Part shown: positions 19,212 through 23,253 of the stretch, in pieces
Layout of the letters: each line of letters opens with the position of its first letter
Numbering within the stretch: the stretch's first letter is position 1
Assembly: GCF_022846255.1 (NCBI RefSeq)
Contig: NZ_AP025682.1
From: Escherichia coli
GTDB taxonomy: Bacteria > Pseudomonadota > Gammaproteobacteria > Enterobacterales > Enterobacteriaceae
DNA: 64,000 nucleotides
Strand: one strand, 5' to 3'
Position numbers and translations under genes: made by a program
Notes under the pieces: generated by a model
What the model was told of the DNA's origin: nothing
Databases searched by the model: none
What the model saw: the letters and a program-made list of their open reading frames with translations, nothing else

Positions 19212-19257
19212 GCATTAACATGGGTAGGCCGTTTAAAGAGCCTACCCACTGACTTAT

Positions 19258-19575
19258 TTATCTTTTTTTGAAAAAAATTAAGATAAGAAAAAGAACAATA
19301 TTTGTTACAGGAAATACCCCCAAAGCTCCCCAGTACTTACTCCATCCTAGAGACATCGTATATCTACCAAGGATTTGACAAAATCCAAAACTTAACCCTA
19401 TACCTATACTTCTTAAATTTAATGTCGTAGTCAGGCTTAAAATAAATAGAACAAGGATGGTAATAGCCCACCACAATAACCACGCCTTAACAAAATCAGA
19501 TTTTTTGCTGTAAGGTTCTTTACCCAAGAACAACTGCCAAAAGTTACTATTTTCCATATAGAATACATTCACCAA
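19258..19575 (-). CDS. small hypothetical inner membrane protein in AT-rich islet (position of yigG in the K-12 layout)
   Basis: 105-aa ORF with two hydrophobic segments; about 30% GC; start codon uncertain. Confidence 0.4.
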   Translation of the reverse strand: MVNVFYMENSNFWQLFLGKEPYSKKSDFVKAWLLWWAITILVLFILSLTTTLNLRSIGIGLSFGFCQILGRYTMSLGWSKYWGALGVFPVTNIVLFLILIFFKKR

Positions 19576-19772
19576 AAATATTATTCATAGAAACAAATAT
19601 TATTTAATTATATTTAATTAAATATAGTTCCCCTCAATAAAAACTTATACACTCTAAATTACTACTGTATAGTTATCAATACAAAGGCTGTCATATTGCA
19701 TGGATATAACAAGCTATATGTTCTAAATAATGTATATACACTTAAACCAATCATATACAAAACAATATAAAA

Positions 19773-20159
19773 ATGTTTAAATCATCTATTAGAAATATAT
19801 TATACCCATCCAGGCTTAAGCATTTATCACGTTTGCAGTTTATAATCTACACATTAACATCATGGACAATATTAATAACTTTGAATGATATCAACCTGGC
19901 TTTGAGTTTCATTCTGGTCATCACTAATACGTATGTGAATATCAATATCGGAGCTAAAAGAATAAGAGATACTGGATGTAAGGCAATCTATTTTGTATTG
20001 ATTTCATTGGGTTTGACACTTTTTTCTATTATCTCGGCAGTAATTGAAGGGGTGAGATGTGATTCATTAAGCGTCCAACTCAACGTAGCATGGATATTAT
20101 TCACAACAATTATGTTATCTGCGATTCCCTCGGCTAAAATGTCGCTGTCAGCACACTAA
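19773..20159 (+). CDS. small hypothetical inner membrane protein in AT-rich islet (position of yigF in the K-12 layout)
   Basis: 128-aa ORF, hydrophobic segments; about 30% GC. Confidence 0.4.
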   Translation: MFKSSIRNILYPSRLKHLSRLQFIIYTLTSWTILITLNDINLALSFILVITNTYVNINIGAKRIRDTGCKAIYFVLISLGLTLFSIISAVIEGVRCDSLSVQLNVAWILFTTIMLSAIPSAKMSLSAH

Positions 20160-20183
20160 CTTACTCACAGCGACATCGTAAAG

Positions 20184-21134
20184 TTACAACCAGTTCTTCC
20201 GCTTAAAGTAGAGATACGGTGCCAGGCCCGCGAGGATCATAAAGATAATCGCGCCTGGGTAGCCGAAGCTCCACTTCAGTTCTGGCATAAACTCAAAGTT
20301 CATCCCGTAGCTGGAAGCAACCAGCGTCGGCGGCAGGAACACGACGGATACCACCGAGAAGATTTTGATGATGCGGTTCTGCTCGATATTGATAAAGCCC
20401 ATCGCCGCCTGCATCAGGAAGTTCACCTTCTGGAACAGGGATTCGTTATGCGGCAGCAGGGATTCGATATCTCGCAGGATTTCACGCGCCTGCTCCAGTT
20501 GCCCACCCGGTAAACGCGCCTTGCGTACCAGGAAGTTGAGCGCACGCTGGGTATCCATCAGACACAGGCGAACTTTCCAGCCGATATCTTCCAGTTCCGC
20601 CAGCGTAGAGAGCGCTTCGTCATACTCATCGCCCTGATGCCCTTCCATAATCACCCGGCTCAACTGCTCCAGGTCGCTATAGATATTTTCAATTTCATCT
20701 GCCAGCTGTTCGATTTTGGTTTCGAACAGATCCAACAGCAGCTCGTAGGCGTTACCGTCTACCATCGACTGGCTACGGGCACGCATACGATACAGACGAA
20801 AAGCGGGCAGTTCACGCTCACGCAAAGTAAACAGACGACCATCACGGATGGTAAATGCCACAGTGGAGTTACCGGCGTGATCTTCCGCATCTTCAAAGAA
20901 GAAGAAGGAGTGAATATGCAGGCCGTCATCGTCTTCAAAGAAACGTGCCGATGCTTCGATGTCTTCCAGTTCCGGGCGGGTTGCCAGGCTCTGGCCAAGT
21001 TCAGATTGTACGCGCAGTCGCTCGTCGTCGTCCGGTTCGACAAGATCAATCCATACTGCATTTACAAGGGGTTGTGACTCTTCGACTTCCAGCCGGGTCA
21101 GTCGGTTATTTTCCAGTTGAAATGCGCTCAGCAT
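20184..21134 (-). CDS. corA: magnesium/cobalt transport protein CorA
   Basis: [17 protein letters not shown]... 316 aa with the GMN motif ([11 protein letters not shown]); start at the internal ATG of ORF 20184..21149. Confidence 0.97.
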
Positions 21135-21503
21135 GACCGGGACTCCCAATGCTTAAAATATCGGACAGTTCGGTGGGCACACAGAAACAAATTGGGTTTC
21201 AGACCATTAAACAGCCTGACTCAGCGCGACGGGAAAAATTGAGGTCGCTGACAACCGCTAAGGCTATCAGCAAAAAGGGATAGCCTTAGGAGTTGATCCT
21301 GGATGACAGGATAGTGAGCCAGTATCTACTGGGTGTGTCCAAGGCGAATGTCCTCTTAGAGTGATCGTGCGCGCATGTTACGCCAGCAAAATTTTGCCGT
21401 CAACACGCAACAGAACACCACAGAACAATAGTTGAACTTCGCGCTTTTTGGTACTCGTCAAGGTCGCTAACAGGATAAAAAAATCCCACATCCAGGACCT
21501 ATA

Positions 21504-22268
21504 ATGGCGCATCGGCTACTCATTGGTAAAGGAATGATCACCTTGAATCTCAAACGGATTTTTCTCGCCCTCACCTTACTTCCCTTGTTTGCTGTTGCCG
21601 CTGATGATTGCGCACTCTCAGATCCGACGCTGACCGTACAGGCGTATACCGTTAATACTCAAACAGAGCGGGTGAAAATGTACTGGCAAAAAGCCAATGG
21701 CGAAGCGTGGGGAACGTTACATGCGCTGCTGGCGGATATGAATAGTCAGGGTCAGGTGCAGATGGCGATGAACGGCGGCATCTATGATGAAAGCTATGCG
21801 CCGCTCGGTTTGTACATCGAAAACGGTCAGCAGAAGGTGGCGTTAAATCTCGCTTCAGGTGAAGGGAATTTCTTTATTCGTCCTGGCGGCGTGTTTTATG
21901 TCGCGGGAGATAAAGTCGGCATCGTTCGTCTGGATGCCTTTAAAACCAGTAAAGAGATTCAGTTTGCGGTGCAGTCAGGGCCATTGTTGATGGAAAACGG
22001 TGTAATTAATCCGCGTATTCATCCCAACGTCGCCTCACGTAAAATTCGTAACGGTGTTGGGATTAATAAACATGGGAACGCCGTGTTTTTGTTGAGCCAG
22101 CAGGCGACAAATTTTTATGATTTTGCCTGTTATGCCAAAGCAAAACTGAACGTTGAGCAGCTGCTTTATCTTGATGGCACAATTTCACATATGTATATGA
22201 AAGGCGAGGCAATCCCGTGGCAACGCTATCCTTTTGTCACCATGATTTCCGTCGAGCAGAAAGGTTAA
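21504..22268 (+). CDS. yigE: DUF2233 (phosphodiester glycosidase-like) protein YigE
   Basis: 254-aa ORF with N-terminal signal-like segment; length and position match K-12 yigE as I recall. Confidence 0.75.
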   Translation: MAHRLLIGKGMITLNLKRIFLALTLLPLFAVAADDCALSDPTLTVQAYTVNTQTERVKMYWQKANGEAWGTLHALLADMNSQGQVQMAMNGGIYDESYAPLGLYIENGQQKVALNLASGEGNFFIRPGGVFYVAGDKVGIVRLDAFKTSKEIQFAVQSGPLLMENGVINPRIHPNVASRKIRNGVGINKHGNAVFLLSQQATNFYDFACYAKAKLNVEQLLYLDGTISHMYMKGEAIPWQRYPFVTMISVEQKG

Positions 22269-22350
22269 ACATTGTACACTCGAGGAGGCCAGACAAACTG
22301 GGGCTGGCTACACAGCTGGAAAATCATCAGATAAATGAAGGGAAACAAAA

Positions 22351-23253
22351 ATGAAAAAAACGCTCGCAACATTATTTTTATTAACCTGTCTGGGGTCATC
22401 ATCCGCTTATGCGGATAACGCTTTGATTTTACAAACGGATTTTAGCCTGAAAGATGGTGCCGTCTCGGCGATGAAAGGGGTCGCTTTCGGCGTTGACCAT
22501 AATCTTAAAATATTTGATTTAACACACGAAATTCCACCGTATAACATCTGGGAAGGCGCTTACCGCCTGTATCAGACTGCCAATTACTGGCCGCAAGGTT
22601 CGGTGTTTGTTAGCGTGGTCGATCCTGGTGTTGGTACAGAGCGTAAATCGGTAGTGCTGAAAACCAAAAATGGTCAGTACTTCGTTTCACCAGATAACGG
22701 TACGCTCACGTTGGTGGCGGAATCGCTGGGTATTGAGAGCGTCCGGCAAATCGATGAAAAAACCAACCGTCTGAAAGGTTCCGAAAAGTCATATACCTTC
22801 CACGGTCGTGACGTGTATGCCTACACCGGTGCACGTCTGGCTTCCGGGGCGATCACGTTCGAGCAGGTGGGGCCAGAGCTTCCTGCAAAAGTTGTCGAAC
22901 TTTCTTATCAGAAAGCCAAAGCAACAAAAGGTGAAGTGAAGGGCAATATCCCGATTCTCGATATTCAGTACGGCAACGTCTGGAGCAATATCAGCGACGA
23001 GTTGCTGAATCAGGCAGGAATCAAACTCAACGACACGTTGTGTGTGACCATTTCCGAAGGTTCCCAGCAAAAATACGCAGGGAAAATGCCGTATGTCGCA
23101 AGCTTCGGCGATGTGCCGGAAGGCCAGCCGATGGTGTATCTGAACAGCTTATTGAATGTTTCCGTGGCGCTGAATATGGATAATTTCGCGCAGAAACATC
23201 AGGTTGCGTCTGGTGCTGACTGGAATATTGATGTGAAGAAGTGCGCTAAGTAA
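22351..23253 (+). CDS. DUF62 / SAM hydroxide adenosyltransferase-like protein with Sec signal peptide
   Basis: MKKTLATLFLLTCLGSSSAYA signal peptide with AxA cleavage site; ILQTDFS...MKGV and VVDPGVGTERK motifs characteristic of the SAM hydrolase/fluorinase-like family. Confidence 0.75.
   Translation: MKKTLATLFLLTCLGSSSAYADNALILQTDFSLKDGAVSAMKGVAFGVDHNLKIFDLTHEIPPYNIWEGAYRLYQTANYWPQGSVFVSVVDPGVGTERKSVVLKTKNGQYFVSPDNGTLTLVAESLGIESVRQIDEKTNRLKGSEKSYTFHGRDVYAYTGARLASGAITFEQVGPELPAKVVELSYQKAKATKGEVKGNIPILDIQYGNVWSNISDELLNQAGIKLNDTLCVTISEGSQQKYAGKMPYVASFGDVPEGQPMVYLNSLLNVSVALNMDNFAQKHQVASGADWNIDVKKCAK

Follow-up and report, generated by a model that had tools for sequence, protein, structure and literature searches.

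The corA-yigE locus

Within the window (the whole 64-kb stretch of E. coli DNA analysed here), an inverted repeat and a 13-nt direct repeat lie in the spacer that separates two divergently oriented genes:

20184..21134, minus strand: corA coding sequence, the regulated gene (open reading frame and RefSeq annotation)
21504..22268, plus strand: yigE (open reading frame and RefSeq annotation)

A region of 701 bp around this spacer was matched in 5,425 of 5,426 complete E. coli genomes, at 100% in strain D8, and the locus is single-copy, with a median of one place per genome for the 701-bp region among the 5,425 genomes. The spacer itself (21135-21503) is identical in the K-12 derivative RR1, and the differences found within 21000-21700 are confined to yigE.

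The surroundings of corA were compared by a scan anchored on the CorA protein, which covered 80 Enterobacterales species from Escherichia to Pantoea, Dickeya, Yersinia and Edwardsiella. Beside corA, yigE was found in just 3 of the 80 species, all three being other Escherichia representatives, and uvrD lies directly upstream of corA in the same orientation in 76 of them, at a median distance of 362 nt. The corA leader and the hairpin within it are kept whether the upstream neighbour is yigE or uvrD, and yigE appears, from this synteny, to be a lineage-specific insertion next to a leader that is maintained regardless of its neighbour.

A gene of the SAM hydrolase/halogenase family (22351-23253) adjoins yigE, and it is only in Escherichia that the two separate corA from uvrD. 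The window and strain D8 both have the SAM-hydrolase gene, which K-12 RR1 lacks, and the stretch 21504-23253 as a whole looks like a lineage- and strain-specific insertion beside a deeply conserved leader. The spacer on the other side, between rarD and corA (about 19212-20183), is likewise strain-variable: K-12 carries yigG and yigF at this place, D8 carries a YPO3983-family gene and a DUF943 gene, and the window has two other small open reading frames at 19258-19575 (minus strand) and 19773-20159 (plus strand).

Promoter, leader and conservation

A promoter scan of the corA-yigE spacer returned TTGACG/TAACAT as the sole promoter-like site, and the corA leader follows it:

21375..21403, minus strand: corA promoter, with the -35 box TTGACG at 21403..21398, a 17-nt spacer and the -10 box TAACAT at 21380..21375
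21135..21368, minus strand: corA 5' leader of about 234 nt, with the probable +1 at 21368, possibly at 21366-21367

Position 21368 lies 7 nt downstream of the -10 box, and leader nucleotides are numbered from it throughout (nt n = 21369 - n). With this choice the bases are identical at all published Salmonella mutation positions through nt 123, namely G24 C25 C26, G84 G85 C86, U97, C99, G105 C106 C107, G121 and G123 (positions from PMC5314796), and the Salmonella mutants whose sites match by base are M1*, M7, M1, M2 and M5, which cover stems A, B and C; as the Salmonella sequence is not among the 80 loci, the numbering was transferred via these base identities and Citrobacter-like relatives only. 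The oligonucleotide names of the E. coli study place +1 up to 2 nt further downstream, and its termination sites show an offset of 1 nt (PMC11552253). We infer from these correspondences that transcription starts within 21366-21368.

Between the -35 box and the corA ATG the sequence is very highly conserved, and this conservation is lost abruptly upstream of the -35 box; each promoter hexamer exceeds 90% conservation in Enterobacterales, in contrast to the DNA upstream of the two. Over nt 14-125 the leader shows a mean identity of 87.4% to E. coli, compared with 87.6%, 91.3% and 61.5% for corA codon positions 1, 2 and 3, which means that the leader evolves as slowly as the first codon positions of the gene it precedes. 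The conservation analysis of the spacer proposed in the earlier note therefore came out positive for the leader and the hairpin across Enterobacterales; of the elements that it had named, the hairpin and the first copy of the direct repeat are kept, and the second copy is not kept beyond E. coli and E. albertii. As an observation on the promoter region, a block just upstream of the -35 box, GTTCYGTTGCGTG (21404-21425, minus strand), is conserved in Escherichia, Citrobacter and Enterobacter, unlike the rest of the DNA upstream of the -35 box, and could be an UP-element-like or factor-binding candidate sequence.

The hairpin and stem-loop C of the corA leader

The inverted repeat had been described as a hairpin with a perfect 11-bp stem, and this is borne out exactly: the arms CTAAGGCTATC (21258-21268) and GATAGCCTTAG (21279-21289) enclose a 10-nt loop. 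A repeat search extends the arms to 17 nt with 88% complementarity (21252-21268 / 21279-21295), and the extended hairpin amounts to 16 bp, composed of the 11-bp core and an outer helix of 5 bp. We calculate that chance would produce a perfect 11-bp stem with a short loop about 0.002 times in 354 nt. The corA-sense RNA of the hairpin folds at -21.1 kcal/mol (z = -6.5), with 0 of 200 shuffles folding as well, and the whole leader also folds more stably than expected (z = -3.6), its minimum free energy (MFE) fold containing long-range duplexes. On the corA-sense strand the hairpin occupies leader nt 80-111, 124 nt upstream of the corA ATG.

Stems A-D of the corA leader were reportedly defined by Kriner & Groisman in 2015. 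In both Salmonella and E. coli this leader is a Rho-dependent attenuator, in which stems A and B constitute the OFF state, with the rut site exposed, and stems C and D, which exclude A and B, the ON state, with the rut site sequestered; there is an additional stem E (PMC5314796, PMC11552253, PMC12360218). The position of the inverted repeat corresponds to one of these structures:

21252..21295, minus strand: stem-loop C, the ON or antiterminator structure, with core pairing nt 80-90/101-111 (21289..21279 / 21268..21258) and outer pairing nt 74-78/113-117

In Salmonella, M1 (G84 G85 C86) pairs with M2 (G105 C106 C107) within stem-loop C (PMC5314796), and in the window these sites are 21285-21283 and 21264-21262, in the middle of the 11-bp hairpin. 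The supplementary oligonucleotides of the E. coli study are exact window sequence; those for its 'ON' mutant carry a CAACT/GGTTG swap (nt 74-78/113-117) that disrupts stem B but leaves the outer helix of stem C intact, and the 'OFF' oligonucleotide rewrites nt 103-107 in the 3' arm of the hairpin and keeps the complementarity of stem B (PMC11552253). Expression was 'severely decreased' in the E. coli OFF-state mutant (PMC11552253). The base matches at the mutation sites, together with the targets of the E. coli oligonucleotides, lead to the identification of the hairpin as the 11-bp core of stem-loop C. Of the possibilities raised in the earlier note, a structured corA 5' leader was thus the right one, since the hairpin is stem-loop C of the published leader; that note had missed ysgD/corL, an annotated upstream open reading frame (uORF) whose stop codon lies inside the hairpin. 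Our overall reading, which we hold with high confidence, is that the hairpin is stem-loop C of the corA leader, a translation-coupled Rho-dependent attenuator, and that the 13-nt repeat is coincidental.

Among 78 distinct sequences, 96.6% of cells in stem C are paired and four pairs change on both sides. The pair U87-A104 is U-G in 23 sequences and C-G in two, and U89-A102 is C-G in two; after the frequent change of A104 to G, pairing is maintained in stem C (U87·G104) as well as in stem B (G104·U116). The pair U81-A110, at the foot of the hairpin, is open in about 24 species. Most pairs of stems C and A are invariant and covariation in the core is limited to a few lineages, which makes the covariation support for the hairpin core, as judged from these alignments, real but thin. 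Part of the extreme conservation could stem from other constraints, such as corL coding, contacts with Rho or RNA polymerase (RNAP), or RNase III.

Alternative stems of the leader

The remaining stems of the published switch can be located in the same transcript, two of them using nucleotides of the hairpin:

21275..21357, minus strand: stem A, a three-way junction enclosing corL (nt 24-30/80-86, 16-18/89-91 and 12-14/92-94)
21245..21273, minus strand: stem-loop B, OFF state with the rut site exposed (nt 96-107/113-124, 12 bp)
21226..21248, minus strand: stem-loop D, which forms with C (GCGAC nt 121-125 / GUCGC nt 139-143; probable register, present in the MFE fold)
21199..21219, minus strand: stem-loop E (nt 150-158/162-170; from local folding)

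Stem A and hairpin C use one and the same 5' arm. M1* (G24 C25 C26) pairs with M1 in Salmonella (PMC5314796), and the corresponding core helix of stem A is almost invariant, with 99.1% of cells paired. Stem B, which draws on nt 101-107 and 113-117 of stem C, has a folding energy of -17.4 kcal/mol (z = -4.9) and 93.7% of its cells paired; U97-G123 and C99-G121, as published, fit into it (PMC5314796). For stem D, 100% of cells are paired and a triple compensatory change occurs in Yersinia aldovae. A register of nt 118-123/143-148 had also been considered for this stem and was replaced by 121-125/139-143, as only 85.5% of its cells are paired and one pair is open in 42 of 77 sequences. Stem E, the counterpart of the Salmonella hairpin 152-172, has 90.1% of cells paired, with six of nine pairs changing on both sides.

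Stems A to E thus show pairing above 90% across species, with some compensatory changes. Taken as complete structures, the ON state has 92.5% of cells paired and 15 pairs changing on both sides (78 distinct sequences), and the OFF state 92.2% and 13 pairs, compared with 20-48% of cells paired overall, and 20-43% for the ON structure, in a control with slid partners. In simple constrained folds, blocking nt 66-97, as a ribosome at the corL stop would, gave stem B, and C+D+E resulted when the leader was left free or when corL was blocked at its start or middle, in agreement with the published model.

A small hairpin inside corL, UCCUGUCAUCCAGGA (21296-21312, minus strand; nt 57-73), forms an arm of the stem-A three-way junction. 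Its covariation across Enterobacterales is clear: four of its six pairs change on both sides, and in about 30 sequences, for example, a U-A pair is replaced by A-U. The variability of the corL peptide at this place suggests that selection at nt 57-73 acts on the RNA rather than on the peptide.

The upstream reading frame corL

The uORF that overlaps stem A ends in the hairpin itself:

21286..21342 (nt 27-83), minus strand: corL (= ysgD), UUG start, 18 codons, MDTPSRYWLTILSSRINS, UAA at 21288..21286

RefSeq names its product 'protein YsgD' or 'YsgD/CorL family protein', and the translation agrees. Translation of YsgD in E. coli has been detected by blots of tagged protein and by PIRT-seq. The start codon is TTG in all 80 species and the length is 18 aa in 75 of them; the N-terminus MDTPSR(Y/C)WL is conserved and the C-terminal half is variable. 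As the 18-aa peptide of E. coli is too short for a profile scan, the family match rests on the 25-aa orthologue of Yersinia aldovae, which scored 31.2 bits against the 30-bit cut-off of NCBIfam NF041266 (YsgD_CorL). The UAA (nt 81-83) coincides with nucleotides 2-4 of the stem-C 5' arm, and the stop falls on these same nucleotides of the arm in 79 of the 80 Enterobacterales species.

The locus therefore displays the parts of a leader/corL attenuator: a corA-sense position between promoter and start codon, a uORF with UUG start and conserved N-terminus that overlaps stem A, and mutually exclusive sets of stems, A+B versus C+D, with the published partners. This anatomy, the mutual exclusivity of the stems, their conservation and the fixed position of the stop codon are all shown by the present analysis.

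A translation-coupled attenuator

For Salmonella and E. coli it has been reported that corL overlaps stem A, that its efficient translation favours stem B and termination, and that impaired translation favours C+D and the expression of corA (PMC5314796, PMC11552253). In E. coli a corA promoter fusion was unregulated and regulation mapped to the 5' UR (PMC11552253). In the window, transcription probably starts at about 21368 on the minus strand and yields the leader of about 234 nt, in which stem A (through nt 24-30) and stem C (through nt 101-111) compete for nt 80-90, and in which nt 101-107 and 113-117 can alternatively pair within stem B. When corL is translated efficiently, as expected at higher cytoplasmic Mg2+, a ribosome at the UAA would cover the 5' arm of stem C, a step that we derive from the likely footprint of the ribosome. 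With this arm covered, stem B would form and the pyrimidine-rich rut segments that flank it would be exposed, so that Rho would terminate transcription near the corA start. When translation of corL is inefficient or absent, stems C and D would form instead, the rut segments would be sequestered and RNA polymerase would read into corA. For the dependence on Rho, the response to Mg2+ and the inverse coupling of corL and corA, this scheme draws on the published experiments with Salmonella and with E. coli K-12, whose leader is identical in sequence to that in the window. As for the route by which Mg2+ acts, the literature considers translation of corL, direct folding of the RNA, or both (PMC11552253).

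One could also suppose that the hairpin, or the longer duplexes of the leader, serve mainly as a site of RNase III processing or decay that sets the stability of corA mRNA, which seems very unlikely to us as their principal role. Control of corA mRNA degradation by RNase III in E. coli was reportedly described by Lim et al. in 2012, and the MFE fold of the full leader contains long-range duplexes. A Rho mutant of E. coli moreover keeps residual Mg2+ regulation, to which ribonucleases were suggested to contribute (PMC11552253). Stem C, however, comprises 11+5 bp with a bulge, compared with the roughly 22 bp quoted for RNase III substrates, and ON, OFF and corL start-codon mutants behave as attenuation predicts (PMC5314796, PMC11552253). 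Roles in RNase III processing and in antitermination are compatible with each other, so that the former would be at most an added function, and RNase III control could represent an additional role of the leader duplexes.

A perfect 11-bp palindrome with a 10-bp spacer, which folds equally well on either strand in silico, could in principle represent a DNA operator for a dimeric repressor acting as a roadblock at +80 to +111, a REP-like element or an intrinsic terminator, yet this group of explanations is extremely improbable. Variation at the hairpin is strand-specific and of the RNA type: A104G, found in 23 sequences, gives U-G on the corA-sense RNA and a C-A mismatch on the opposite strand, and since this wobble at 87/104 pairs on the corA-sense RNA alone, it counts against a DNA operator as well as against an antisense structure. 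The C-G compensations preserve pairing rather than sequence, and the nucleotides of the hairpin serve the alternative stems A and B as well. Published data on mutants and compensatory mutants, in addition, assign the effect to RNA pairing (PMC5314796). A palindrome of the REP/BIME type is rejected by the single-copy nature of the region (median one place per genome in 5,425 genomes) and by the exact hairpin occurring once per locus, always upstream of corA.

As for termination, the earlier note had pointed out that no T-run adjoins the hairpin and had considered a terminator unlikely, and it was correct on both counts, with hairpin C being followed by CGGUUGUC, which lacks a U-run, and not being flagged by the terminator scan; an intrinsic terminator is ruled out for hairpin C on these grounds. 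A U5 run does occur on the corA-sense strand 20 nt downstream of the hairpin, beyond the overlapping stem B. Stem B was the only stem flagged by the terminator scan, with 5-6 nt between it and the U-run, and hits were no more numerous than in shuffles.

The 13-nt repeat

The second feature of the spacer is a pair of similar 13-nt segments about 219 bp apart:

21242..21254, plus strand: repeat copy 1, AGGTCGCTGACAA, in RNA UUGUCAGCGACCU (nt 115-127), equal to the stem B 3' arm and the stem D 5' arm
21461..21473, plus strand: repeat copy 2, AGGTCGCTAACAG, between the corA -35 box and the yigE ATG, 31 nt from the latter

Both copies are found where the earlier note had placed them and match at 11 of 13 positions; their similarity, on which the claim of a direct repeat depended, is at chance level. 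In 300 dinucleotide-preserving shuffles of the 354-nt region, at least one pair of 13-mers with at least 11 matches occurred in 29% (mean 0.64 pairs), and an equally good, unrelated 13-nt repeat exists in the same stretch (21115-21127 / 21430-21442). Copy 1 is conserved as part of the stem B/D switch. The intact form of copy 2 is confined to E. coli and E. albertii; one further mismatch is seen in two other Escherichia lineages, and the 76 other genera or species lack this copy altogether.

It had been suggested that the two copies form a pair of regulator binding sites, and the corresponding explanation, a transcription factor (TF) that co-regulates the divergent corA and yigE genes, for instance by looping over about 219 bp, is of minimal probability. 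Both copies do exist, they are the sole matches to the degenerate pattern in the 64 kb (the pattern having been derived from the copies themselves, and a motif search yielding no further copies in the window), and copy 2 is only 31 nt upstream of the yigE ATG. Against a TF pair stand the match of 11/13, equalled in 29% of shuffles and by an unrelated repeat in the spacer, and the poor conservation of copy 2 beyond E. coli and E. albertii; the two copies are neither both conserved nor similar above chance, and the notion of a binding-site pair is not supported. Copy 1, moreover, is fully explained as an arm of stems B and D at +115 to +127, inside the transcript, and the corA promoter fusion was unregulated (PMC11552253). 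With yigE beside corA in just 3 of 80 species and conservation ending upstream of the -35 box, the idea of a divergent control region shared by corA and yigE is not supported either, and co-regulation of yigE is rejected on the basis of synteny. The 13-nt repeat is best read as a coincidence between the switching segment of stems B and D and unrelated, non-conserved upstream DNA.

Comparison with known leaders

The hairpin and the corA attenuator are already known. Relative to the Salmonella and E. coli corA leaders with corL (Kriner & Groisman 2015, 2017; Vézina Bédard et al. 2024), the window carries the same locus, identical to K-12; the uORF (UUG, MDTPSR...), the alternative sets of stems (A/B versus C/D, plus E) and the bases at the mutation sites all agree. 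Compared with Salmonella, the E. coli leader is about 4 nt shorter (AUG at nt 235 versus 239) and the numbering drifts by 2 nt from the stem-D loop on; nothing substantive differs.

The mgtA/mgtL leader resembles the corA leader in having a uORF within a three-way junction, mutually exclusive stems (A+B versus C), a response to Mg2+ and, in Salmonella, Rho-dependent termination (PMC11552253). Differences are found in the peptide, as corL contains a single proline and is not proline- or acid-rich, and in the promoter, which in the case of corA is not PhoP-regulated (PMC11552253). A further difference is that the corA leader has no match to the Mg_sensor family (RF01056) in an Rfam covariance scan of 20900-21800 with E up to 10, which returned four weak hits far below the gathering scores (mir-76, AaHKsRNA54 and two snoRNA models) and thus no Rfam family for the corA leader.

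As in the classical ribosome-mediated attenuators (trp, his and tna leaders), which of the alternative RNA hairpins forms is decided by where the ribosome stands on a leader peptide ORF, and as in tnaC the output is the access of Rho to a rut site (PMC12360218). What differs in the corA leader is that efficient translation of corL to its stop favours termination, the terminator is Rho-dependent rather than intrinsic, and no run of regulatory codons is evident in corL.

The attenuator that contains the hairpin tunes CorA, the main Mg2+ channel, and its recovery here illustrates that a functional element of an RNA switch can be picked out by reading the sequence. The comparative data may modestly extend published alignments with respect to the fixation of the corL stop codon, the evolutionary rate of the leader and its neighbour-independent conservation, and they leave the published attenuation model unchanged.

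An open frame overlapping corL

In the +1 frame relative to corL, the leader is open from upstream of the transcription start to a UGA at nt 100-102 (21267-21365, minus strand; nt 4-102). This UGA lies where the stem-C loop meets the 3' arm, which is also where the stem-B 5' arm begins. The open stretch measures 28-36 or more codons, and in 67 of 80 species it is closed by a stop at nt 99-103. A PIRT-seq study proposed an overlapping 'CDS177' with an AUC start and found Ribo-seq and PIRT-seq signal past the ysgD stop. The AUC start of CDS177 is not conserved, as most species have AUU in its place or an in-frame stop ahead of it, and the open frame is plausibly a by-product of extreme nucleotide conservation. 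That the frame is genuinely translated is unlikely in our view; if it truly were, a ribosome terminating at its UGA would be a second influence, independent of the first, on whether stem B or stem C forms.
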